64,000 bases of DNA. Origin: Candidatus Rokuibacteriota bacterium. Its GTDB lineage: Bacteria; JAUVQV01; DATDCY01. Under the pieces are notes generated by a model. It saw only the letters and a program-made list of their open reading frames with translations, made no database searches and was not told the DNA's origin. The position numbers and the translations under genes were made by a program. The stretch is taken from assembly GCA_031406795.1 (NCBI GenBank), contig JANOHV010000005.1, positions 1 to 64,000 on the forward strand. The letters are read 5' to 3'. Below, piece by piece: positions 3,080-31,623 of the stretch; positions within the stretch are counted from its first letter, which is position 1; each line of letters opens with the position of its first letter.

Positions 3080-4371
3080 GCCAGTTCCTGCGCCACCTTC
3101 TCGATGCTGGCGGCCGGCCCAACCGCGGACCAGGCCGAGCGCGCGGGGTCGAAGAGCCTCCCCGCGAGCCGGCACAGGTGCGCCGGCGCAACCTCGTCGA
3201 TCCGCTCGAGGGTCTCCTCGATGGTGAACTGGCGCCCGAAGTAGATCTCCTGTTTGGCGAGTTTCATCATCCGGTGGCTCCCCGACTCGAGGCCGAGGAC
3301 GAGATTGCCCTTGAGGTGATCGCGCGCGCGCGTCACTTCCTTCGCGCCGGGAGCCCGCGCGGCGATGCGCTCGAGTTCGCGGCGGATGATCCGCGCCACG
3401 CGCGGCGCCTGGTCGGGCCGCGTGCCGACGCTGACCGAGAACAGGCCGGCGTCGCGATAGGCCGAGTGAGAAGAGAAGATCGAATAGGCCAGGCCGCGCT
3501 TCTCCCGCACCTCCTGGAAGAGCCGCGAGCTCATGCTGCCGCCGATGATCGTGTTGAGGACGTACAGGGCGTAACGATCGGCGTGATCCTGCTCGAGTCC
3601 GGCGCAGGCGTAATTGAGGTAGATCTGCTCCAGGTCGCGGGCGCGGCTGTAGAACCCGGGCTTGACCCGCGGCGTCGTCTGGCTCGCCGGACGGTGCACG
3701 CGCTTTGGAAAAGGGAAATAGCGGCGCCAGAGGCGTTCGAGATGCTCGTGGGTGACTCCGCCGGCGGCCGCGAACACCAGGTTGCCCGAGCGGTAGTTGT
3801 CCGCGAAAAACTTCAGCAGCCGGGCACGCGGCACCTTGCCGACGCTGCCGGGGCTGCCGAGGATCGGCCGCCCGAGGGTGCTGCCGCCCCAGAGACCCTG
3901 CACCAGCAGTTCGTAGGCGCAGTCCTCGGGGTTGTCCTCGGCGCAGCGGATCTCCTCGAGGATGACCCGGCGCTCGCGCTCCACCTCGTTGGCGGGGAAC
4001 GTCGAGTGCAGCAGGATGTCGGAGAGGATCTCCATCCCCCGCTCGAGGTGATCGACGAGCAGGTTCAAATAAAAGGCGGTGTACTCGCGGCTGGTGAAAG
4101 CGTCGAGGTGACCGCCGATGGCGTCGATCTCCTTCGCCAGGGCGGCCGCCGTCCGCTTTTTCGTTCCCTTGAAGAGCAGGTGCTCGATGAAGTGCGCCCC
4201 GCCCTCCAGACCGGCCCGCTCGACGCTCGAGCCGCTGCCGACCCAGACGCCGAGCGAGACGGTCGGGCGCCCCGCGAGCTCTTCGGTGACGACGCGGACC
4301 CCGCTCGGCAGCAGGGTCCGGCCGAACACCTGGGGACCCGCGGAAACCTTCCGGGTCACCGGACGCACCAT
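3076..4371 (-). CDS. M16 family zinc peptidase
   Basis: HFIEH inverted zinc motif, [25 protein letters not shown]; usual position after pnp. Confidence 0.92.
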
Positions 4372-6495
4372 CTAGACGCCTGCGGGGGCGTCCCCGCCCC
4401 GGCCGCGCATCGCTTCCTTCTTGCTGAGCTTGACCTTGCCGTCGCGGTCGATGTCGATGACCTTGACCATCATCTCGTCGCCTTCCTTCACCTCGTCGTG
4501 GATGTTGTTGACGCGGTGCTCGGCCAGCTGGGAGACGTGGCAGAGGCCCTCGGTCCCGGCGAAGATCTCGACGAAGGCGCCGAAGTCCATGACGCGCTTG
4601 ACCCGGCCCTTGTAGATCTTGCCGACCTCGGCCGAAGCGGTGAGCTCCTTGATGATCGCCATCGCGCGCTTGGCCGAGTTCTCGTCCACCGATGCGATGT
4701 TGATCGTGCCGTCGTCCTGGACTTCGATCTTGCAGCCGGTCTGCTCGATGATCGAGCGGATCGTCTTGCCGCCCGAGCCGATGACGTCGCGGATCTTGTC
4801 GATCTTGATCTTCATGGTCAGGATGCGCGGCGCGTAGGCCGAGATGTCCCCGCGCGGCGCGGTCAGAGCCTCGCTCATCTTGCCGAGGATGTGCATCCGC
4901 CCCTCGCGGGCCTGGGCCAGCGCGCGGGCCATGACTTCGCGGGTCAGCCCCTTGACCTTGAGATCCATCTGCAGCGCGGTGATCCCGGCCGCGGTGCCGG
5001 CGACTTTGAAGTCCATGTCGCCGCAGTGATCCTCGACCCCCTGGATGTCCGACAGGATGTGGAAACCGCCGCCCTCGGCGACGAGCCCCATCGCGATCCC
5101 AGCCACCGGGGCCTTGATCGGGACGCCGGCGTCCATCAGCGAGAGGGTGGCGCCGCAGACCGTGGCCATCGAGGAGGAGCCGTTAGACTCGAGGATGTCG
5201 GAGACGACCCGGATCGTGTAGGGGAACTTGTCCTTCTCCGGCAGCATGACGCGGATCGCCCGCTCGGCGAGCGCGCCGTGGCCGGTCTCGCGGCGGGTGG
5301 TGCCGCGCAGCATTCTCGCCTCGCCGGTGCAGAACGGCGGGAAGTTGTAGTGCAGCATGAAGCGCTTGCGCGAGACCAGGCCGAGGTCGTCGATGATCTG
5401 CTCGTCCTCGGAGGTGCCGAGCGTCGTGACGGCCAGCGCCTGGGTCTCGCCGCGGGTAAAGAGCGCCGAGCCGTGGGTGCGCTGCAGCACGCCGACCTCG
5501 CCGGTGATTGCGCGGATCTCGTCGAGCTTGCGGCCGTCGACGCGGCGGCCCTCCTCGGCGATCATCCGGCGGGCTTCGCGCTTCTCCATGTCGCCGAAGA
5601 TCGCGATGATCTCATTCTTGCGGTCGATCCCGGGGCTCGCGAACTCGGCGAACTCGCCGAATGCCAGCGTGCGGACCGCCTTGACCGCATCCTCCTTCTC
5701 GAACTTGCCGCTCACGAGCATCGCCTCGCGCATCTGCTCGAGGTACTCGGTCTCGAGAACCCGCTTGAGTTCCGCATCCATCACGCCCGCCACGAAGGGC
5801 ATCTTCTCGGGGGGCGCGCCGGCGGCGTCGCGCAGCTTGAGCTGCAGTTCGACGAGCTTCTTGATCTCCTCCTGCCCGAGCAGCAGCGCCTGGACGATGG
5901 TCTCCTCGCTCACCTCGAGGCTGCCGGCCTCGACCATCAGGATCGCGTCCACGGTCCCGGCGACCACCATGTTCAGCGTGCCGGTGGCAATCTGCTCGCT
6001 GGTCGGGTTGACGACGAACTGCCCGTCGACCTGGCCGATGCGCACGGCGCCGACCGGACCCTCGAACGGGACGCGCGAGATCGTCAGCGACGCGGATGCG
6101 CCGTTGAGCGCCAGGATGTCGGTCTCGTTGATCTGGTCCGCGGAGTAGACATTGCAGATGATCTGCACGTCGTTGCGGAAGCCCTTCGGAAAGAGCGGAC
6201 GCAGCGGGCGGTCGATCAGGCGGCAGCCGAGGATCTCGCGGTCGCCGGGGCGGCCCTCGCGGCGGAAGAAGCCGCCCGGGATCTTCCCGGCGGCGAACTG
6301 CTTCTCCTGGTACTGAACGGTGAGCGGAAAGAAATCGACGCCCTCGCGGGGGGAGTCGGCGGCGACAGCGGTGGCGAGCACCGCGCAGCCTTCGTAGGTC
6401 ACGAAAACGGCCCCGTCGGCCTGCTTGGCCATGCGGCCGGTCTCGAGGGTCAGGGTCCGCCCCCCGAAGTCCATGGAAACACGTGTGACGCTCAT
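4372..6495 (-). CDS. pnp: polyribonucleotide nucleotidyltransferase
   Basis: [49 protein letters not shown] and S1 domains. Confidence 0.98.
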
Positions 6496-7119: not shown

Positions 7120-10100
7120 CTAGCGCAGCGTGCCTCCCAGGGGAATCGTCCCCTCGAAGCCGAACTGCGTCTGCCAGAAGCCTTCGCTGCTCTTGAAGAT
7201 GTACCAGTTGCCGCCGGGCGGGTAGTAGCAGCCGATGTCGTCCCGCCCGTCGCCGTCGAAGTCGCCGACCACCGGCTCGGTCCCGGCGAAGCCGAACTTG
7301 GTCTGCCAGAAGCCGTTCGTGCTCTCGAAGACGTACCAGTCGCCGCCGGGCGGGTAGTAGCAGCCGATGTCGTCGCGCCCGTCGCCGTCGAAGTCGCCGA
7401 CCACCGGGATCGTGCCGGCGAAACCGAACTGCGTCTGCCAGAAGCCTTCCGAGCTCTTGAAGACGTACCAGTTGCCGCCGGCCGGGTAATAGCAGCCGAT
7501 GTCGTCGCGCCCGTCGCCGTCGAAGTCACCGACCACCGGGATCGTCCCCGGGAAGCCGAACTGCGTCTGCCACAGCCCGAGCAGACTCATGTCGATGCTC
7601 CAGCTGCCGCTGTCGGGGTGGTAGACGCCGATGTCGCTCCGGCCGTCGCCGTCGAAGTCCCCCGTGACCGGAATCGTCCCCGCATAACCGAACTGCGCCT
7701 TCCAGAGACCCTCGGCGCTCTTGATAATGTTCCAGCTGCCGTTGCCGGCGCGGTAATGGCCGATGTCGCTCGCGCCGTCGCCGTCGAAGTCGCCGGTGAC
7801 GGGAATCGCCCCGGTGATGCCGAGTTGCTTCTCCCAGAAGCCTGCCGTGCTGTTGAATCCGTACCAGTTGCCGCCGGCCGGATAGTAGCACCCGATGTCC
7901 GAACGACCGTCACCGTCGAAATCGTTCCTCCTGATCGGGTGGCTGGCCACGCAGTCCCGGTCCTCCTGGATGGTCACGATGGCACTGGCCGGAGCCCCGA
8001 GTGCGTAGGCCGGGCTCTCGCCGAGCGTCACGACCACCGACTCGCTGCTTTCGCACACGCCGTTGTCCAGAGGCGTCACGGTGATCGTCCCGGTCGCCGA
8101 TCCGGCGGGAATCGTCACGCTGACATCGAGCGGCACGTAGTCGCCGCCCGGGTTGGCCGTGCTGATCACGGTGAAGTCAACCAGAAGCGCCGCGCCCGTG
8201 TCTCCGGTGCGTGTCACCGTGAAGACTCCCGGCGTCGTCCCGCCCTCGGTGATCGTCGGAACCGTGGCGGCGATCGTCACTACCGGCACTGCCGGCGGGA
8301 GCGCCACATCATCGCTCTGGATCGTCACGCTCGCGCTTGCCGCCGCATCCACGAGGTAGGCGCCGCTCGCGCTGAGCGTCACCACGACATTCTCGTCCGG
8401 CTCAACCGCCGCGTCGTCAATCGGCGTCACGGTCACCAGCGCCGCCAGCGAGCCGGCCGGGATCACGACGCTGCCGGGCAGAGCCGCAAAGTCGCTGCCG
8501 GCCGTCGCCGTGCCGCCAACGGTGTAGCTCACCGTCAGCGCCCCGGTGGTGACCCCGGTACGCGTCAGCGTGAACTGTCCCGCCGTCGTTCCGGCTTCCG
8601 TCGCCGTCGGGTCCGTCGCCGCAATCGCCACGGTCGGCGGAACCAGATCGTCACTCTGAATCGTCACCGTCGCGCTCGCCGCCGCCCCTACGGTATACGT
8701 GGCGCTCGCGCCGAGCGTCGCGATCACGGTCTCGCTCGTCTCGATCGCCGCATCATCGATCGGGGTGACCGTCACGGCGACCGTCGCGGCACCCGCCGCG
8801 ATCACCACGCTTCCGGGCAGCGCCAGGTAATCGCTCCCCGCCGCCGCCGTGCCGCCGACCGTGTAGCTCACGCTCAACGCCGCAGTCGTGGCCCCGGTGC
8901 GCGTCACCGTGTACTGCCCGGTCGTCATGCCGGCTTCCGTCGCCGTCGCATCCGTCGCGGCGATCGTCACCGCCGGCAGGTCGTCGCTCTGAATCGTCAC
9001 CGTCGCGCTCGCGGCGGCTCCCACGTTGTACGCGGCATTCGCGCTCAAGGTCACGATCACGGTTTCGTCGGCCTCGACCGTCGCATCGTTGATCGGGGTA
9101 ACGGTCAGCATCGCCGTCAATGAACCCGCCGGGATCACAACGCTCCCGGAGAGAGCGGTGTAGTCATTCCCGGCCGCCGCCGTTCCCGCGACGGTGTATC
9201 GCGCCGTCAATGCAGCGGTCGTTGCGCCGGTGCGGGTCAGCGTGAACAGCCCCGTCGTGGTTCCGGCCTCCGTTGCCGTCGAATCCGTCGCCGCGATGGT
9301 CACCACGGGCAGCGCCGACAATTCATCGCTTTGAATCGTTACGGTGGCGCTCGCCGCAGTCCCCACGGCGTACGCCGCACCGGCGCTGAGCGTCGCCACG
9401 ACCGTCTCATCGATTTCCGCCAACGCATCGTCGATCGGCGTTACCGTCACCAGCGCCGTCAACGAGCCTGCGGGAATCACCGCGCTCCCGGAGAGGGCGG
9501 CGTAATCGCTCCCCGCCGTCGCGGTGCCGCCGATGGTGTAGCTCACCGTCAGCGCCGCGGTCGTGAGCCCGGTGCGCGTCAGCGTGTACTGCCCCGTCGT
9601 CGTCCCCAGCTCCGTGGCCGTGGGGTCCGTCGCCGCAATCGTCACCGTCGGCAGAACCACGTCGTCGCTCTGAATCGTCACGGTCGCGCTCGCCGCCGCT
9701 CCCACCGTGTAGGTGGCACCCGCGCCAAGCGTCACGACGACCGTCTCGTCGGGCTCAACCGCCGTATCGTTGATCGGAGTAACCGTAACGGTGGCCGTCA
9801 GGGCGCCCGCCGGAATCACCACACTCCCGAGGAGCGCCGTGTAATCGCTCCCCGCCGTCGCCGTTCCTCCGGCCAGGTAACTCACCGTCAGCGCCGCAGT
9901 GGTCGCACCGGCGCGCGTCAGCGTAAACTGCCCGGTCGTCGTGCCGGCTTCAGTCGCCGTCGGATCGGTCGCTGCGATCGTCACCGTCGGCAGAACCACA
10001 TCCTCGCTCTGGATCGTCACCGATGCGCTCGCCGCGGCGCCCAAGGTATAGGCCGCGTTTGCGCTCAATGTCACTACCACGGTCTCATCGGACTCGACCG

Positions 10101-24147: not shown

Positions 24148-26073
24148 TTACGGGAGGATTCGTCCGCGGTCCATGGTGACGACGCGGTCGGCGTCCTTCG
24201 TGATCTCACGTTCGTGTGTCACCATCGCGATCGTCACGCCGCGACGGTGCAACTCGCGAAAGAGGCCCATCACCTCCTGCTCGGTCTCGACGTCCAGGTC
24301 CCCGGTCGGCTCGTCGGCGAGAATCAGCTGCGGGTCGAGGATGAACGCCCGTGCGATCGCCACCCGGCGTTGCTGCCCGCCGGAGAGCTGGCCCGGGTAG
24401 GCGTCGATCTTGTCGGCGAGCCCGACGAGCCCCAGCAGCCGCCGGCCCTCTTCCTCGACACCCGGCGGCGGCGCCGGCGAGAAGGCCGCCGGCAACAGCA
24501 CGTTTTCCAGCGCCGTCAGCGTCGGCACGAGGCTTGCGAATTGGAAGATGAAGCCGATCGAGCGGTTTCGCACCGCGGCGAGACGGGCCTCGTCGAGACG
24601 GGCGACATCCTCTCCGGCGAGCAGGATTTCGCCGTGAGTCGGCCGCGTCAGCCCGCCGATCAACGAGAGCAGCGTCGTCTTCCCCGAGCCGGAGTGCCCG
24701 AGGATCGCCAGAAACTCGCCGCGGCGGATCTCCAGCGAGAGCCCCTCGATTGCCGCGACGTGCCCGTCGGCCGCCGGATAGCGCTTCTCCAGCTCGCGGA
24801 CGCGCACGAGCAAATCCGCGGGGAGGGGCGGGCAGGGCCCGGGAATCCCCGGGGGGCATACCGAAGGCGACTCGCCGGTGTCCTTGATGGCGTCGAGCGG
24901 GTCGATCCGGCTGACCCGCAGCACGGGCTGCAGGGCCCCGAGCACCGCGACGCCGACCGCCGCGCCGAGCCCGCCGGCGCCGATCGCCAGCAGCACCAGA
25001 GGCGAGAAGTACACCGGGAAACGCGTCACCTCGTCCACGGCGCGCACCGCCGGCACGCTCAAGGCCGCGCCCGCTGCGATGCCGACCAGTCCGCCGATCA
25101 ACCCCGTCGCGACGGCCTCGGCGAGAAAGAGCCGGATCACGTGGCCGCGGGTCGCCCCGAGCGAGCGCAGAATGCCCACCTCTCGCGTGCGCTCGTTCGC
25201 GACCGCGGAGAAGACCGAGGCCACGACCAGCAGCGCGAGGATCGAGCCCACGGCGACGGTGAGCAGGAAGATCTGCAGCGTCACCCGGAAGAAGCGCGTC
25301 AGCCGGCTGCCGATCTCGCCGCGGGTGATCGCCTTGACGTCGAGGTTTTCGCGCTCGATCGTCTTGGCGACGGTGTCCGGGTCGAAGCCGCGGCGCAACG
25401 CGACAAAAGCGACGGAGACCTCGTCGGGGGAGACCACGTAAGGCGTGAGCTTCTTCTCGATGGCCTCGCGCACGTCCACCTCGCGCAGAAAGACCGTGTT
25501 GTCGAGCGGCGTGCCCGTCACGTCGAGAGTGGCGGCGACGTTGAATTTCATCCCCAACAGCCAGGTCTCCCGGCTCATCTCGATGGAGCTGATGCCCTCC
25601 ACCTTGCCGCCGAGCACCACCTCGTCCTTGCCGAGTTTGCGCTTGAGCCGCTGTTCGATCCAGGGGGTGATGACGAAGTCGGTCTCCGGGTCGAAGGCGA
25701 CGATCCGGGCCGAGGAGATGCTGCAGCAGACCCCCGCCAGCGTGGCGAGGTAGGTGTGCGCAGTGACCTTCTCGATGGCCGGCATCTCACGCAGCCGCGC
25801 CAGCATGTCGCGTTTGATGTGGAGGCTGAGCCGGTCGGTCGCGAAGAGGAACTCCTCCGGATTGGTGACCGCGCCGGGGGGCGCGACCATGATGTCGCCG
25901 CCCATCCGCCGCAGGGTGAGCTGAATGCCCTGTCCGAGCCGAAGCAGGGAGGCGAGCGAGAAGATGACGAGCGTCGCGAGCAGCGCGATGGAGAGCAGCA
26001 GCGAAAGCGTCCGGAATGGCCGGCGGCGCAAGTTGCGCACGGCGATGGCGCCGAGCCCGCGCACGTGCGCCAT
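24148..26073 (-). CDS. ABC transporter, FtsX-like permease fused to C-terminal LolD-like ATPase
   Basis: RNLRRRPFRT, ERTREVGILRSLGA, GHSGSGKTT, LSGGQQRR, ILADEPTG; ATG 26073. Confidence 0.88.
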   Translation of the reverse strand: MAHVRGLGAIAVRNLRRRPFRTLSLLLSIALLATLVIFSLASLLRLGQGIQLTLRRMGGDIMVAPPGAVTNPEEFLFATDRLSLHIKRDMLARLREMPAIEKVTAHTYLATLAGVCCSISSARIVAFDPETDFVITPWIEQRLKRKLGKDEVVLGGKVEGISSIEMSRETWLLGMKFNVAATLDVTGTPLDNTVFLREVDVREAIEKKLTPYVVSPDEVSVAFVALRRGFDPDTVAKTIERENLDVKAITRGEIGSRLTRFFRVTLQIFLLTVAVGSILALLVVASVFSAVANERTREVGILRSLGATRGHVIRLFLAEAVATGLIGGLVGIAAGAALSVPAVRAVDEVTRFPVYFSPLVLLAIGAGGLGAAVGVAVLGALQPVLRVSRIDPLDAIKDTGESPSVCPPGIPGPCPPLPADLLVRVRELEKRYPAADGHVAAIEGLSLEIRRGEFLAILGHSGSGKTTLLSLIGGLTRPTHGEILLAGEDVARLDEARLAAVRNRSIGFIFQFASLVPTLTALENVLLPAAFSPAPPPGVEEEGRRLLGLVGLADKIDAYPGQLSGGQQRRVAIARAFILDPQLILADEPTGDLDVETEQEVMGLFRELHRRGVTIAMVTHEREITKDADRVVTMDRGRILP

Positions 26074-26187
26074 CAGCGCGCCCTCTCGCAGATCATCATG
26101 CGGGGAACTTTCACACACGGGCCGCGGACCGTCAAGCGGGGACAGATTTTCGCTCGATCTTGCGCCGTCTTCCGGCATTCCCGAGCA

Positions 26188-26238
26188 GGCTGCGGGGTCC
26201 TGACGCTGCGGACCTCCCCTCCGCGCCACCCCTCCGCC
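26188..26238. repeat. dispersed repeat family B, short copy
   Basis: 30-nt and 21-nt blocks identical to 58756-58785 and 58842-58862. Confidence 0.8.
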
Positions 26239-26345
26239 AGGTGCGTGCCATCTCCCCTGGCCTCTGCGTATCGAAAGGCTGTAGACTCTCCGTTGCGTGC
26301 CAATTGCAAACTGGCCGTTTCGGCCGACAACCGGGGAGGGCGACC

Positions 26346-26843
26346 GTGCGAAAGATCGGAACGACAATCGTGCTGGCAATCGTTCTGGCCTCGTTCATCA
26401 GCGGGGCGAAGGCCGGGGCGGCGGAGAAGGACATCGAGAAAATACCCTCCTGCCAGTACTGCGGCATGGATCGCACGAAGTTCGCCGCGACGCGCATGCT
26501 CGTCGAGTACGCCAACGGCACGACCATCGGCGTCTGCAGCATCCACTGCGCGGCCGTGGAACTGGCGCAGAGCTTCGGCAAGGAGATCAACGCACTGAAG
26601 GTCGCGGACTACCGCAATGGCCGGCTGATCGACGCCGAGAAAGCGCTGTGGGTGGTCGGTGCCGGCCTGCCGGGGGTGATGGCCGCGAAAAGCCGCGTCG
26701 CCTTCGCCGACCGGGCACAGGCCGAGGCCTTCCGCAAGGACAAGGGCGGCGAGATCGCCGACTTCAACGCGGCCATCACCTCGACCTACTGCGACATGTG
26801 GCCTGACACGCAGGCAATCCGCTCGCGGCGAACGAAGCACTGA
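26346..26843 (+). CDS. NosL-family protein
   Basis: Signal peptide; CQYCGM, CSIHC, IDAEKALWVVG, GVMA..VAF; GTG with GGAGG SD. Confidence 0.82.
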   Translation: MRKIGTTIVLAIVLASFISGAKAGAAEKDIEKIPSCQYCGMDRTKFAATRMLVEYANGTTIGVCSIHCAAVELAQSFGKEINALKVADYRNGRLIDAEKALWVVGAGLPGVMAAKSRVAFADRAQAEAFRKDKGGEIADFNAAITSTYCDMWPDTQAIRSRRTKH

Positions 26844-26863: not shown

Positions 26864-27256
26864 CTAGCGGATGCCGCCCTGCTCGGACACGACCTTGACG
26901 GCGGAGACGAAATACCCCGTCTCCCCGAAGCAGGTCGTCGGGACGCCGACATGCTGCTCGTAGCTGACGGCGACCTTGGCCCCGATCGAATCGTTGATCT
27001 GCCGGGCGACCGCTTCGCTGGGCACGGTGAAGGGAAACTTCTCCGCGACGGTCCCGGGCATGGAGACAAGCGCCATCTCGCCCTCCCAGGTCTTGCACAG
27101 CCACCCCTTCTTCGACAGCTTCTGGACGTAGCCCGCGCGCTCGCCGGAGGAGAAACTCCAGTGGAGCACGATCCAGGTGTAGGCGGCGGCGGCCAGCGCC
27201 GGCAGGAACAGGACGATCACCAACCACTTCAGCATCTTCACCCCGGCGATTCCCAT
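26864..27256 (-). CDS. conserved hypothetical single-TM protein
   Basis: N-terminal TM, SSGERAGYVQKLSKKGWLCKTWEGE motif, GAGGAGG SD. Confidence 0.65.
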   Translation of the reverse strand: MGIAGVKMLKWLVIVLFLPALAAAAYTWIVLHWSFSSGERAGYVQKLSKKGWLCKTWEGEMALVSMPGTVAEKFPFTVPSEAVARQINDSIGAKVAVSYEQHVGVPTTCFGETGYFVSAVKVVSEQGGIR

Positions 27257-27323: not shown

Positions 27324-29522
27324 CTATTTCTTCATCATCGGCGAGCGCTCCCAGGATACCCAGGAACCGTCGTGAACCGCAACGTTCGGGTAGCCGAGGT
27401 ACCTGAGCGCGAACCAGGCCCCGGCGGCCTGCTGTCCCGTGTTGCAGGTGACGATGATCCGCTTGTCTTTCGTGATCCCGCGGGATTCCAGCAGCCAGAC
27501 GAGCGCCTGCGGATCCTTGAAGAAGCCCTCGACGGTCCACAACCCCTGCACCGAGAGGTTCACGGTCCTGTCGATGTGCCCGGTCTGCACCGTGAGGGGG
27601 TGCTTCTGCAATCCCTGGTACTGGCCGACCGGGCGCACATCCAGCACGATCGTCCCCGGGTCCTGCAGCGCCGCGGCCGTCTGGCGGTTGTTCACGATGA
27701 CCGCGTTGTCGACGGCGGGGGTGAAAACGCGCGGCAGGGCCGGCGGCGGATCCCCGGCCACGAGGGGCAGCTTCGCCTCCTTCGTCCAGGCGTCAACCCC
27801 GCCATTGAGGACCGCCACATTGCCGTGGCCGAGCCGCTGCAGGGCGAAGGCCAGGAAGGGCGCCTCGAGCCCGCCTGCATCGTAGACCACCACGCGCAGG
27901 CTGGTGTCGATCCCGCGGCTGCCCAGCAGGACGGCAAGTTCCTCGGGCGCCTTCATGGTCATCGCCCGGGGCGTCGCATCGGGCGGGTGGCGCAGTTCGC
28001 CCTGGACATTGAAGGCCACCGCCCCCTCGATATGGCCCTTCTTGTAGGCGGCACCCGTGCGCGCATCGACTACGACCAGGGGCTCTTTCTTCTGCAGCAG
28101 CTCGTGCAGGGCCTCGGCCGAAACAAGCATCGCGGCATTCACCTGCACGACCGGGTTCTTGAAGGTGTCCTCGGCGCGCCTGGTCGGGATCTTGTCGTCG
28201 GCCACGACAACCGCCTTGTTCGCGCCCTTCTCGTAGTCGAGCAGGTCGCTCTCGGCGAGGAAGACCGAGCGTTCGCCGTGACAGTGGTTGCAGGAGACGT
28301 TCCGCCACGTCAACTTCTGGATGTTGTGCGGCGAGGCGCGCTTCCAGGTCGGAACGTTGTCGAAGGTCTTGAAGCCGTCCTTCCCGTAGAAGTCGAAGAC
28401 GTCCTTGTCGGAGGGTTCGTGCCGCACGAGGATCCACTTCTCGGTGAGCCCCGTCCCCGGGTAGTTCAAGCCGATCTTGAAAGATTCGGTCTCCATCTGG
28501 TTCACGAAGTAGACGACACCCTGGTCGTCCTTGCCGGTGTGGCAGCTGTAGCAGTTCACGTAGTCCTGGGAGTGGCAGACCTGGCACTGCACCTTGCCGG
28601 CGTGGTCCTGGTGCTGTTGCGTCTTCCCGAGGTCCTTCTCGTGGCACCCCGTGCACTTGGGCAGCTGCGGCAACTGGTAGCGCGAGGTCAGCCCCTCGCC
28701 GGAGGCGTGCATCTCCCCCGCCGGGTGACAGGCCATGCAGTCCATTGCCAGCTTCGCCAGGTGCGCGTCCCCGATGCCGCGGCTGCCGAAATACTCGTCC
28801 CCCACGCGGCTGCCATGGCAGGCGGTGCACTGGTTCACCATGTCGGGCTTCTTGTTGAAGACGTGACCGTTCACCAGCCCGCTCTTGGAGAACTTGGGCC
28901 GGCTCACGTGGCACTGGCCGCAGCTGGAGTGGCAGGGGGTGCAGTGGTTCTTGCGCCCCTGGTCGACCACCGCATCCCAGTTGTGGGGATCGTCGCCGGC
29001 GCGGGCCCGCATGACCTTCGTGAAGGTGGAGAGGGTCGCGTGCAGGGACGTCGCCCCCGTCTTCACCTCGTTCTCGTGGCATTCCGCACAGACGATCTTC
29101 TCGCTCTTGCCGAAGGGCGGAACCTCGGTGGGGTCCTTGACGACGCCCTTGTGGGACTCCAGGCGCTCGACGGCGACGGGGTTGCCCCCGTGGCACTCCG
29201 CGCAGGCCTTCTCACCGTGCTCCGTGGCGAAGAACTTCTGCGATATGAAGACCTTTTCCCATAGCTCCAACGGAGCTACCGATCCCCCTCAGCCCTTCCC
29301 CGCCTGGAGTGCGGAGACCGGCGGTGTCGGTACCTTGGCGGCCTCCGCCTTGAGCTTCTCGGCGTCGGTGTGGCAGGCGACACAGCTGGAGGCCGGCTTT
29401 GCTGCCGCAGCAGCGGCACACGTATCGGACGACAGCACGGCGGCGGCGGCCACGATGCTGACACCGAGCATTCGCCAAACACGCCATTGGTGCGAACGAG
29501 AACCTCCCTGACAATGCGTCAT
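27324..29522 (-). CDS. putative selenoprotein: multiheme (11 CxxCH) cytochrome c fused to tandem rhodanese domains; UGA at 29289-29291 read as Sec
   Basis: ORFs 29289..29654 and 27324..29270 are in frame, joined by GKG-UGA-GGSVAPL; SECIS-like hairpin follows; C-terminal VTCNTGQQA and HDGSWVSW rhodanese motifs. Confidence 0.82.
29262..29278 (-). promoter_or_regulatory. bacterial SECIS-like stem-loop
   Basis: mRNA UGA-GGGGGAUCGG-UAGCUCC-GUU-GGAGCUA: perfect 7-bp stem with a G-first loop 17 nt after UGA. Confidence 0.72.
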
Positions 29523-29928
29523 GCGTCCCTCCCTCTCGGTCTCCTGGCCAATCGCCCGGCGAGCCCGGCACCGGCTGCCGAATCGAACTCCGTTGAGGTC
29601 TCCAGTGCTTACCCTACCGAACCGCTCCCCGTCAATAGATAAAAGATTGAACAACCCGATATTCTAGGCGATTCAAGGCTGTCCAGCCGTTCGCCACAAA
29701 GATTATTTCTGCTCCCGGCGGAGGCCGAAGGAAACAGACCGTCCGGAATCGGCGCCGACCGCATGCTCCGGGAATTATCCGACACCGCTTCTTAATCCTT
29801 ATTCGTTGACAAACATTCACATTTTAGGTAACTAACCAACCCAATACTGGCAGTCGGCGTCGGGCATCTACGACATCCGGTCTGCCTGGAACAGGCAATT
29901 CACACCGTGCACTGGGGGGCGTTTGGGC

Positions 29929-31623
29929 ATGAGTCGAAACAGTCGTTCTCTCGTTGTGGTTCTTCTCGTGTTGGTGTTCCTGAGCGTGCAAGGTCTGGCC
30001 GGGGTCGCTTCAGCGGCTGACAGCGGCGGCTATGGCTCCCCGTCGCCGGCCGCCACGCCAGCGCCAAGCTCGGGGGGTTACGGCTCGCCCGCGCCGGCGC
30101 CCGCGGCCTCGTCCGGCGGCTACGGCTCCCCGACCCCGGCACCCGTACCGGCAGCCTCATCCGGCGGCTACGGCTCCCCCGCGCCTGCGGCAGTCGCCGC
30201 TCCGGCGGCCAGTTCCGGCGGGTACGGTTCCACCGCCCCCGCAGCATCCGCCCCCGCGGCTTCCACTGGCGGCTACGGGTCTCCGGAACCGGCGGCGAAG
30301 TCCGCCCCCGCAGCGGTCGTCGAAAAGTCCAGGGCCGCAACGACGGTCGCGAAGCCGGGCGCCCCGGCAGCCCCGGCGACCACCAAGCCCGCGGCCGCGC
30401 CCGCGGCGCAGTCCGCCGTTCAAACCGCCACGCCGCCGGCCCCCGCCGCATCGGCCGGCTACGGCAGTCCCGCGGCGCCGGCCACGCCCGCAGCCCCGGC
30501 TCCCGTCGCCGCGCCGGTCGCGGCAGCCGCCCCGCAGCAGGGGAGCGGGCTGCCGCCGGTCAACTTCGGGTTTCTGATCACGGCGCTGCTCTGCGGCGGG
30601 CTGATGGGGTGGGCGCTTCAGCGCGGTCGTTTCTGCATGAACACCGCGTTCCGCGACACGATCTTCATCAAGGAGTTCGTCACCTTCCGGGCCTTCCTGC
30701 TCGCGCTGCTCGTCAGCATCATCGGCGCAAATCTGCTGAGCGACGGCGGCGTCATCGCGCTGAAGGCCCAGCCGTTCTGGCCGATCGCCCACATCCTCGG
30801 CGGGCTGCTCTTCGGCATGGGGATGGTGCTCGCCGGCGGCTGCGGCAGCGGCATCTGGTACCGGGTCGGCGAGGGGCAGATCGCCTCCTACATCGCGGTC
30901 GGCGGCTTCTTCAGCGGCATCGCGATCATGCAGGACGGTCTGTTGAAGCCCTTCTACGAATGGTCGAAGTCAGTCATGCTCATCGGCAGCGAAGGCCCCT
31001 ACAAACTCTCGCAGATCTTCGGGGGCAGCACCGGCGGCAAGTGGGCTTTCATCGCCGTCGTCGCGGTCGCGATCTTCATCGCCATCTGGCCGGAGAAGCC
31101 TTTCGCGATCAAGAAGGGCAAGGGCTACTACTGGTCGGTGACGGGCGTGTTCATCGGCCTGATCTCCGTGCTCTCCCTCTGGGCCTCCGCGAAGTTCGGC
31201 GACCTGCACGACTCCGCGCGCGGCCTCTCGTTCACGACGCCGACCCGCGAACTGTTCTTCACGCTCTTCACCGGTGAGTCGCGCTCGAGCTTCTTCCAGA
31301 ACTACGCGCTCGGCGGCCTCAAGATCACCTGGGGCGTGATCTTCATCATCGCGGTGCCGATCGGGGCCTACCTCTCGGCGCGCGGCCTCAAGGAGTTCTC
31401 CTGGAAGACCCCCCGCGACCCGAAGGAGATCCTCGCCGTGATGCTCGGCAGCGTGATGATGGGCTTCGGCAGCTCGCTCGCGCTCGGCTGCAACGTCGGG
31501 CAGGCAATCACCGGCCTCTCGACGCTGTCGGTGGGCAGCCTCTTCGCGACCCTCGCCATCATCGGCGGCAACTGGATCATGGTCTACTTCAAGTTCATCA
31601 AGCCGATGCAGGACATGGAGTAG
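29929..31623 (+). CDS. YeeE/YedE (TsuA-like) sulfur-compound transporter with N-terminal Ala/Pro/Ser-rich repeat extension
   Basis: LQRGRFCM, GMVLAGGCGSG, LALGCNVG conserved Cys motifs; multiple TMs; 7 GYGS repeats after the signal peptide. Confidence 0.88.
   Translation: MSRNSRSLVVVLLVLVFLSVQGLAGVASAADSGGYGSPSPAATPAPSSGGYGSPAPAPAASSGGYGSPTPAPVPAASSGGYGSPAPAAVAAPAASSGGYGSTAPAASAPAASTGGYGSPEPAAKSAPAAVVEKSRAATTVAKPGAPAAPATTKPAAAPAAQSAVQTATPPAPAASAGYGSPAAPATPAAPAPVAAPVAAAAPQQGSGLPPVNFGFLITALLCGGLMGWALQRGRFCMNTAFRDTIFIKEFVTFRAFLLALLVSIIGANLLSDGGVIALKAQPFWPIAHILGGLLFGMGMVLAGGCGSGIWYRVGEGQIASYIAVGGFFSGIAIMQDGLLKPFYEWSKSVMLIGSEGPYKLSQIFGGSTGGKWAFIAVVAVAIFIAIWPEKPFAIKKGKGYYWSVTGVFIGLISVLSLWASAKFGDLHDSARGLSFTTPTRELFFTLFTGESRSSFFQNYALGGLKITWGVIFIIAVPIGAYLSARGLKEFSWKTPRDPKEILAVMLGSVMMGFGSSLALGCNVGQAITGLSTLSVGSLFATLAIIGGNWIMVYFKFIKPMQDME

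Follow-up and report, generated by a model that had tools for sequence, protein, structure and literature searches.

The region 27324-29522 on the minus strand of the window, by which we mean the whole stretch of 64,000 nucleotides of Candidatus Rokuibacteriota DNA analysed here, is confirmed at the sequence level as one gene that was cut in two by gene callers at a UGA codon. Its product is almost certainly a genuine selenoprotein, as judged from homologues, a covarying hairpin and the gene content of the genome. The best explanation overall, which sequence and analogy to known enzymes make probable, is that selenocysteine (Sec) is inserted into the product of this single gene and that the protein serves in the periplasm to reduce sulfane sulfur by means of Sec and heme.

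A gene cut in two at a UGA codon

The frame opens with ATG at 29522-29520, is closed by TAG at 27326-27324 and contains exactly one in-frame TGA on the minus strand between 27324 and 29522, at 29289-29291, where the residues read ...QAGKG-U-GGSVAPLELWEKVF. The following features were delineated:

27324..29522, minus strand: whole gene, 732 codons plus the TAG stop, translated without interruption when TGA is read as U
29528..29532, minus strand: Shine-Dalgarno-like GGAGG, 5 nt upstream of the ATG, read from the sequence
29400..29522, minus strand: N-terminal leader, residues 1-41, with a basic n-region, the hydrophobic stretch LGVSIVAAAAVL and an Ala-rich end
29370..29384, minus strand: heme-binding motif 1, CVACH, residues 47-51, upstream of the UGA (motif scan)
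29289..29291, minus strand: UGA read as selenocysteine U78 in the motif G-x-G-U-G-G (conservation, Cys relatives, sel machinery)
29268..29270, minus strand: TTG (Leu86), called start of the shortened 648-aa ORF (ORF list)
29261..29279, minus strand: SECIS-like hairpin, 8-bp stem, GUU loop (fold; covariation)
28158..29399, minus strand: multiheme cytochrome c domain, residues 42-455, 11 CxxCH (motif positions; fold match)
27780..28121, minus strand: rhodanese domain 1, residues 468-581, with Asp in place of the catalytic Cys (VVVYDAGG) (PF00581; fold matches)
27342..27725, minus strand: rhodanese domain 2, about residues 600-727, with the catalytic Cys693 in CNTGQQA (Pfam and PDB alignments)

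The ORF list yields two pieces for this region, 29289..29654 (121 aa) and 27324..29270 (648 aa), the second of which starts at TTG, lacks a leader and contains 10 CxxCH motifs. The original prediction had pointed out these properties of the 648-aa ORF, had joined it in frame to the upstream part through the single UGA, and had described the product as a leader, 11 hemes, Sec and a tandem rhodanese. All of this was borne out: the shortened ORF appears in the list as described, translation with TGA as U runs through, and the architecture matches the translation, the Pfam result and the structural model. A promoter scan gave no match, and the only terminator-like site found sits within the next ORF.

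In the predicted structure, residues 1-40 of the leader are modelled as disordered (pLDDT <50), and signal or lipoprotein-like leaders were present in all homologues examined. The first heme motif, CVACH, is invariant in the homologue alignment, and the motif scan of the joined protein counts 11 CxxCH in total. The leader and these motifs together predict an exported protein with c-type hemes. If the UGA were instead a real stop, the locus would encode a monoheme peptide of 77 aa and a 10-heme cytochrome-rhodanese that lacks a leader and starts from the TTG at 29270. This is what the ORF callers put out and how all of the best 120 of 364 database homologues are annotated, yet we consider it very improbable. 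Without a leader, a c-type cytochrome could not acquire its heme, and the called TTG start is a Leu codon within the loop of the covarying hairpin. Conservation is strong across the UGA codon, relatives of the Cys type are continuous through the position, and the codon itself is always TGA and never TAA or TAG in the copies described below. Since the best 120 of 364 database homologues all start past the UGA, covering at most 89% of the query, the family is systematically cut short in annotation. The labels among the matches listed were 'thiosulfate sulfurtransferase', 'rhodanese-like' and 'hypothetical'.

Evidence for selenocysteine at the UGA codon

Homologous loci were collected via mid-protein motifs (best 80 of 564 relatives) and by a read-through genome search, and the search pattern permitted any residue at the UGA column. 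At the 85 loci obtained, which are the window's own and 84 others, TGA occupies the column in 86 of 86 copies, and conservation flanks the codon on both sides in the homologue alignments. Cys is found at the column in 29 of the 65 representative stretches that reach heme 1; 87 representative stretches begin directly past the column. In a pairwise alignment (35% identity, 426 residues), AGGGCGG of the homologue P0187 aligns with AGKG-U-GG of the window protein. Contigs of other samples, including one RNA library, retain the TGA unchanged, and their differences close to it, at 29280, 29283 and 29298, are synonymous; the RNA-library contig (X5) comes from a relative of about 95% and is no proof of transcription.

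Two checks proposed with the original prediction, for UGA or Cys at this column between conserved flanks and for the TGA in other data, thereby came out in its favour. A third was divided. Residues other than Cys or Sec had been named as speaking against the claim, and such residues do occur in more distant relatives and in P0127, a fused homologue with Tyr at the Sec column, whereas the UGA-type clade has TGA throughout. These other residues leave the evidence for Sec in the UGA-type clade intact.

A few representatives have W, G, R, S or L at the column, as might be expected if the UGA were decoded otherwise, by reassignment to Trp or Gly throughout the genome or by near-cognate read-through. 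We give this explanation almost no weight. Each of the unusual residues is one base away from TGA or stems from a gene call made under another code, and the family spans several phyla, which use the standard code. In the genome studied here TGA is the commonest terminator, ending 2043 of 3190 long frames, and the sel genes sought on the strength of the original prediction are all there: selA, selB, tRNA-Sec and selD, which carries a TGA of its own. The Sec machinery is thus complete, which argues against any other decoding and for Sec.

The perfect stem-loop that had been noticed 10 nt past the UGA is present at 29279-29261, and it is conserved and covarying. It reads (G)UAGCUCC-GUU-GGAGCUA(U). 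According to a review (PMC13188914), the apical loop of a bacterial SECIS element lies 16-37 nt from the UGA and has G among its first two nucleotides; the loop of the window hairpin begins 17 nt past the UGA and reads GUU, in agreement with both. Folded as a single sequence, the hairpin is no better than shuffles (z -1.22, equalled by 28 of 200), so that its significance rests on homologue conservation and covariation. Across 82 distinct sequences, pairing was found in 91.2% of cells, compared with 37-49% for slid controls, and seven of the eight pairs showed compensatory change, with 48 cells changed on both sides. The covariation score was reached by none of 500 shuffles. Among homologues the two arms can be swapped (GGCUCC/GGAGCC versus GGAGCC/GGCUCC), the encoded peptide changing from VAPLEP to VEPLAP, which suggests that the SECIS constrains the peptide sequence too. 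A search of positions 29150-29400 in Rfam at E <= 1 gave no match; Rfam may hold no bacterial SECIS family.

Cytochrome and rhodanese parts compared with known systems

Pfam PF00581 matches the C-terminal part in two stretches (E 1.1e-34), and the PDB alignments of the second rhodanese domain extend to residues 725-728. For the C-terminal 270 residues, superposition gave target TM-scores of 0.81-0.86 with bovine TST, human MST and SseA, and rhodaneses were the only Foldseek matches of the whole model; the 3-MST equivalog model reached 94.8 bits, against a cut-off of 250. With the tandem rhodaneses of PF00581 the protein shares an inactive N-terminal domain carrying Asp and a catalytic Cys in a six-residue C-terminal loop, here encoded by the codon at 27444-27446; it differs from them in that it is, by prediction, exported and fused to a multiheme selenocytochrome. 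Rhodanese selenoproteins are already known, and the review gives their motifs as UxxS, UxxG and CxU (PMC13188914). Judging by these listed motifs, their Sec lies inside the rhodanese domain, whereas the rhodanese of the window protein keeps its Cys. Selenoproteins termed 'Sulfurtransferase COG2897' have been described from Olavius symbionts (PMC1976440) and could include members of the family under another name. Of the 86 copies of the UGA-type gene, 29 have the rhodanese fused, 35 have one encoded directly downstream and 10 have one elsewhere in the locus, which means that it is fused or nearby in 74 of the 78 copies open to judgement.

The AF2 model of the cytochrome domain has a pLDDT of 89.3. 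NCBIfam holds no model covering this part, and the cytochrome-only model gave no Foldseek match at E <= 0.001. In VIA-align its best match, and the only clear one, is octaheme tetrathionate reductase (OTR) of Shewanella oneidensis (1sp3_A; Z 9.0, rmsd 4.8 over 265 residues, model 59-412), the next match reaching 4.4. OTR is also the best PDB profile match (E 2.5e-6), with OTR hemes 1 and 2 corresponding to hemes 3 and 4 of the window protein. The two proteins share the fold of the heme core, and the likeness is one of fold only; neither the OTR family model nor the ExtKL/MccSep one matches. TIGR04315 did not match the window protein even at E up to 10, nor anything in its own genome; in Desulfosarcina widdelii it matched two other genes and not the homologue of the window protein. 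OTR has 8 hemes as compared with 11 here, and the window family is obligately linked to rhodanese, unlike OTR. Cys and Sec alternate beside the catalytic heme in OTR-family genes as well (NNF-C in L114, NNF-U in L116), and OTR is listed as a selenoprotein family in the same 2026 review (PMC13188914). That site, however, lies about 10 residues before the CxxCH of the catalytic heme, whereas the Sec of the window protein is placed in an N-terminal extension before heme 2, and the window segment aligned to the NNF-C/U region (RAGDDPHNWDAVVDQGRKNH-C194) contains neither Cys nor Sec.

MccSep (ExtKL, GSU2937-2936 of Geobacter sulfurreducens), the first multiheme selenoenzyme, was shown only in 2026 to be the polysulfide reductase that had long been sought in Geobacter; it is Sec- and heme-dependent, also reduces selenite, and has the rhodanese lipoprotein ExtH in its gene cluster (PMC13510729). 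Both MccSep and the window protein are periplasmic (the latter by prediction) multiheme cytochrome c selenoproteins split at the UGA by gene callers. They also have in common a Sec in a small Gly-containing loop (DGUP in MccSep, G-x-G-U-G-G here), a rhodanese as partner and hosts that cycle sulfur. MccSep has 5 hemes, a C-terminal Ig-like domain bearing the Sec and a conserved heme-ligating Cys (PMC13510729); the window protein differs from it in its 11 hemes, its N-terminal Sec78, the lack of an invariant extra Cys and the fused rhodanese. As the homologue alignments (24 to 46 read-through references) contain no invariant non-motif Cys, the arrangement of a His/Cys heme with Sec seen in MccSep is not reproduced. 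The alignments do contain 11 conserved non-motif His, which could leave all 11 hemes bis-His, with no obvious open heme. NF040886 matches two MccSep homologues encoded elsewhere in the genome (C271, C153) and did not match the window gene (C191:27324-29522), either in the search of its own genome or in the NCBIfam scans of the protein. Weak NCBIfam echoes to the selenite/tellurite operon proteins ExtH (34/200 bits) and ExtM (20/800 bits) were far under the cut-offs. By sequence, the window family is distinct from MccSep. The early claim that the architecture had not been characterised before agrees with the searches of literature and model libraries, and the family was not found in the selenoprotein catalogues consulted; the MccSep homologue lists (PMC13510729, data S1 and S2) could in principle include it.

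Proposed sulfur chemistry and distribution of the family

The hairpin that follows the UGA at codon 78 most likely attracts SelB carrying Sec-tRNA, which would lead to insertion of Sec. The product is a predicted exported protein with 11 sites for c-type heme; its leader and heme 1 are followed by Sec78, which sits in a Gly-rich loop ahead of heme 2, then by an OTR-like core from heme 3 onward and by the C-terminal tandem rhodanese with its catalytic Cys693. In a first step, the rhodanese Cys would take sulfur from polysulfide, thiosulfate or elemental sulfur (S0) to form a persulfide. Sec78 would attack this persulfide, or the substrate directly, giving a Se-S intermediate beside a putative catalytic heme, and the heme chain would finally bring electrons from the quinol or cytochrome pool, with release of sulfide. 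We infer the chemistry on these three substrates, and the placement of Sec at the catalytic heme is putative. A function as a redox enzyme of sulfur compounds seems fairly probable; this assignment rests on analogy, as neither TIGR04315 nor NF040886 matches. The specific relay from rhodanese to Sec to heme is put forward tentatively, and it is a rather speculative suggestion that we are dealing with an uncatalogued family of multiheme selenoenzymes in which the rhodanese hands a persulfide to Sec at an OTR-like catalytic heme. The proposed system would parallel MccSep (ExtKL) beside ExtH in Geobacter.

At least 564 loci of the family were found among species-representative genomes, in Desulfobacterota, Dehalococcoidia and others. 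By their record titles, the hosts belong to several phyla and are sulfur-cycling anaerobes, many of them Desulfobulbia and relatives; the genome studied here also has dsrA. The Dehalococcoidia loci additionally encode a Tat-signal 4Fe-4S protein and a cytochrome b561. The YeeE/YedE gene that neighbours the selenoprotein gene is absent from the conserved neighbour clusters. The small downstream ORF at 26864-27256 was dropped as a part of the system because it is not next to any homologue.

The protein might be a selenoprotein that acts on another substrate, namely selenite or tellurite, tetrathionate, nitrite or hydroxylamine, or arsenic species, with the rhodanese engaged in Se/S trafficking or cofactor handling. 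OTR is catalytically promiscuous and enzymes of its fold turn over several N and S oxyanions, so that the substrate could be a non-sulfur compound. The reduction of selenite by MccSep (PMC13510729) and the echoes to ExtH and ExtM point in the same direction. We nevertheless regard such a substrate as unlikely: the rhodanese link in nearly all assessable copies points to sulfane sulfur, the hosts are sulfur cyclers, the genome carries dsrA, and the scores for ExtH and ExtM do not come close to their cut-offs.

Alternatively, the enzyme as described could be run oxidatively, passing electrons from thiosulfate, sulfide or persulfide to the heme chain, for example in the oxidative arm of sulfur disproportionation or in sulfide oxidation. 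The many hosts among Desulfobulbia and relatives fit with this, as the group includes disproportionators and sulfide oxidisers. Oxidative octaheme enzymes are marked by a Tyr, and P0127, with its Tyr in place of Sec, is reminiscent of them. Heme enzymes of the TsdA type can work in both directions (PMC5146829). However, the sequence does not fix a direction, MccSep, as the characterised multiheme selenoenzyme, works as a reductase (PMC13510729), and the downstream FeS and cytochrome b module of Dehalococcoidia would fit both directions. We therefore hold an oxidative role to be quite improbable and keep to the reductase. More speculatively, direction or substrate may be tuned by which of Sec, Cys and Tyr occupies the column.

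If the selenoprotein assignment is correct, hundreds of genomes of sulfur-cycling anaerobes encode a Sec-dependent multiheme enzyme that is annotated without its leader, first heme and Sec. Owing to the shortened annotation, metabolic reconstructions would overlook a redox enzyme of the periplasm and also a need for selenium. If the proposed function also holds, the enzyme would provide a Mo-free periplasmic reduction of thiosulfate, polysulfide or S0 or, in reverse, a missing step of sulfur disproportionation. Being a second, unrelated family with a built-in rhodanese, it would further show that Sec, heme and rhodanese came to be combined on more than one occasion. A homologue is encoded by a cultured host, D. 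widdelii PP31 (L098), which would make the enzymology of S0 and thiosulfate respiration and disproportionation directly testable.

Gene structure and the in-frame UGA

A mechanical ORF list splits the gene at window 27324-29522 (minus strand) into a piece of 121 aa ending at the TGA and one of 648 aa starting from TTG 29270. The original prediction that both belong to one frame across a single UGA was borne out by reading the sequence:

29522, minus strand: ATG start, with GGAGG ahead
29291-29289, minus strand: sole in-frame TGA (codon 78)
29279-29261, minus strand: hairpin (G)UAGCUCC-GUU-GGAGCUA(U), starting 10 nt past the UGA
27326-27324, minus strand: TAG stop

The joined product of 732 residues has the predicted architecture, namely a leader that is basic at first and hydrophobic further on, 11 CxxCH motifs, of which only the first precedes the TGA, the Sec-site motif in the context QAGKG-U-GGSVAPLE, and two rhodanese domains (Pfam, 1.1e-34), the first with Asp at the catalytic position and the second with Cys693 within the loop CNTGQQA. 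We consider the finding real and its first interpretation supported.

A sequencing error as the source of the TGA was checked against contigs from other samples. Two additional samples of one study and a soil sample of another yielded contigs that cross 29289-29291 with no change among the listed differences, beyond which the comparison holds 68 more. The same applies to an RNA-library contig from a relative of about 95% identity, whose substitutions at 29280, 29283 and 29298 leave the amino acids unchanged (codons read by eye); such a contig cannot prove expression.

The source genome (4.1 Mb, 278 contigs, 67% G+C) carries the machinery to be expected, with selA, selB, selD and tRNA-Sec all found. 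Given that TGA is the most frequent terminator of its long open frames (2043 of 3190), the genetic code is standard. The selD gene (L003, G000:C234:8400-9320) itself has one in-frame TGA, which makes SelD another selenoprotein of this organism.

Conservation of the UGA and its hairpin

A protein search returned 364 homologues, annotated at source as sulfurtransferase, rhodanese-like or hypothetical among the 120 listed. None of these 120, about 635-650 aa in length, covers more than 89% of the query, so that all of them were called from just past the UGA. Read-through search of genomes revealed one-TGA copies in a congener as well as in three unrelated genomes, and a scan of species-representative genomes with mid-protein motifs yielded 564 relatives, the best 80 of which were retained. 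Although the search pattern left the residue at the column of codon 78 free, all 86 copies from the 85 loci examined, the window's own included, have TGA there, and the motif G-x-G-U-[G/A]-G is kept together with its two flanks down to 33-38% identity, as the prediction had required of homologues with UGA or Cys at this site. The UGA almost certainly encodes selenocysteine, an assignment about as strong as sequence evidence permits.

To follow the column further, an N-terminal profile of 88 positions was compared with 1.84 billion representative proteins, resulting in 211 matches at E <= 0.001, of which the best 150 were listed and 149 of these aligned. Eighty-seven aligned stretches start past the column and are truncated gene calls. 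Cys occupies the column in 29 of the 65 stretches reaching heme 1; the others have W (5), Y, S, L and A (4 each), R and P (3 each), gaps (3), H (2), or I, V, G and M (once each), mostly where the motif itself is unconserved. An uninterrupted Cys-type homologue, P0187 (35% identity over 426 residues), aligns AGGGCGG with AGKG-U-GG. A Tyr subfamily (P0127, P0122, P0123) follows the pattern G-x-G-Y-A/G-V...APFDLYE, and its member P0127, 37% identical over 706 residues, retains the whole 11-heme and tandem-rhodanese architecture. Five further proteins (P0126, P0135, P0140, P0164, P0171) have S, R, W, L or G within an otherwise perfect motif. All of these residues are single-base neighbours of TGA; they may be genuine substitutions, or may stem from sequencing errors or from gene calling under other codes.

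Folded singly, the hairpin was no better than shuffled sequence (z -1.22), so that the case for it must rest on the comparison of homologues. In 82 distinct sequences its position and shape are kept, with 91.2% of cells paired, whereas slid controls paired only 37-49%. Seven of the eight pairs show compensatory change, 48 cells are altered on both sides, and none of 500 shuffles matched the covariation score, so the stem-loop claimed for this place is present, conserved and covarying. A complete arm swap in homologues, from GGCUCC/GGAGCC to GGAGCC/GGCUCC, alters the peptide VAPLEP to VEPLAP yet keeps the stem, which demonstrates selection acting on the RNA. The loop begins 17 nt past the UGA with G as its first base, and both features agree with published bacterial SECIS criteria (PMC13188914).

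Fold and possible function

AlphaFold2 modelled the entire chain with a pLDDT of 89.7 and a pTM of 0.88, and the cytochrome domain by itself with 89.3 and 0.85. The C-terminal part is a classical tandem rhodanese (target TM-scores 0.81-0.86 against bovine TST, human MST and SseA). While Foldseek gave zero matches for the cytochrome domain, exhaustive structural alignment placed octaheme tetrathionate reductase (OTR) of Shewanella first (1sp3_A, Z 9.0, rmsd 4.8, 265 residues aligned), far above hydroxylamine oxidoreductase (Z 4.4). A cytochrome-only profile against the PDB also ranked 1sp3 first (E 2.5e-6), pairing OTR hemes 1 and 2 with hemes 3 and 4 of our protein. The OTR family model TIGR04315 did not match the gene, nor did it match the Desulfosarcina widdelii homologue (L098), where it found two other genes; NF040886, the model of ExtKL/MccSep of Geobacter, likewise left the gene unmatched in the source genome and matched two other TGA-containing genes. 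This indicates a distant structural relative of OTR. The two NF040886 matches (L107, G000:C271:2837-4048, and L108, G000:C153:2664-3773) score 458 and 364 bits against a cut-off of 250, with one in-frame TGA each.

Compared to OTR, the protein has two added N-terminal hemes, one more heme, and its Sec loop on an N-terminal extension. OTR-family genes have Cys or Sec in NNF-C/U directly ahead of the catalytic heme, while the segment aligned to this motif here contains neither. The OTR residue numbers Lys56 and Cys64 agree with the alignment. Were Sec78 to act at the catalytic heme too, it would arrive from another part of the chain. In D. widdelii, the OTR-family gene L116 (chromosome 4546872-4548140) has Sec in NNF-U-VSI where its paralogue L114 (6101955-6103289) and Shewanella OTR have Cys, as well as an N-terminal multiheme extension with 13 CxxCH in frame; L114 is separated from L098 by about 12 kb.

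A sulfur-redox function, as first proposed, is plausible and somewhat favoured. The model system for a mechanism is the selenoprotein MccSep, which combines five hemes, one of them with His/Cys ligation, with a catalytic Sec. It is the proven polysulfide reductase in Geobacter S0 respiration, and its ext gene cluster also encodes the rhodanese lipoprotein ExtH (PMC13510729). By analogy, the rhodanese Cys would accept sulfane sulfur, with polysulfide, thiosulfate or S0 as its donor, Sec78 would form a Se-S intermediate at one of the hemes in the OTR-like core, and electrons would pass via the heme chain with release of sulfide. We propose this relay from rhodanese to Sec to heme only tentatively. 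Against it speaks that the family has no invariant extra Cys, that conserved His suffice for 11 bis-His hemes, and that the fused homologue P0127 has Tyr at the column.

Relation to known selenoproteins and gene neighbourhood

Full-text searches of the literature on selenoproteins, multiheme cytochromes and rhodaneses found no description of this cytochrome-rhodanese Sec family. Table passages of a 2026 catalogue of prokaryotic selenoproteins name as heme proteins only ExtKL, the GSU2204 family and the OTR family, and the motifs of its five rhodanese forms suggest Sec within the rhodanese domain (PMC13188914). As the family may overlap with rhodanese form 1 (WP_010941598.1) or with the COG2897 entries of PMC1976440, we do not call it categorically new, and it belongs to a known kind, the multiheme selenoenzymes.

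The partnership of cytochrome and rhodanese is conserved across the family. Among the 86 copies, a tandem rhodanese is fused in 29, a separate rhodanese gene follows in the same orientation, at most 1.5 kb downstream, in 35 (pseudogene L056 counted in), and a rhodanese lies elsewhere in the locus, mostly directly upstream, in 10; six copies reach a contig end, two are without a full ORF, and in the loci of four no rhodanese was found. The separate rhodaneses are single-domain with lipoprotein-type leaders. Ten loci, Dehalococcoidia included (cluster representatives L084, L100), add a Tat-signal 4Fe-4S protein and six a cytochrome b561-type membrane protein, which together look like a quinol-linked module. 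Divergent from the gene in the window is a YeeE/YedE sulfur-transport gene (29923-31623, plus strand; PF04143, 1.5e-65), which is no conserved neighbour across homologous loci; its product has an N-terminal Ala/Pro/Gly-rich extension of about 230 residues with repeated SSGGYGSP-like units. The source genome also has dsrA. At window 24148-26843, a minus-strand gene that fuses an FtsX permease to an ABC ATPase overlaps the region of a NosL-family gene (26016-26843, plus strand). The two may make up a module for copper or an accessory factor, without relation to our gene.

Several loci depart from the common form. A Syntrophobacterales contig (L087) has paralogous copies at 4103-5458 (plus strand) and 8152-9498 (minus strand), the Sec site reading U-A-G in one and U-G-G in the other, and each copy has its own downstream rhodanese of differing type. 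Three Syntrophales members (L068, L070, L075) have 13 CxxCH and about 100 additional C-terminal residues, and a final hydrophobic stretch in the translation of L068 suggests that it may be membrane-anchored. Decayed copies adjoin intact ones: L056, in the same MAG as L029, is a pseudogene, broken by frameshifts and by an additional TAA six codons past the hairpin, and L022 (G001:C4:110369-111883) is without the N-terminal part and drifts out of frame.
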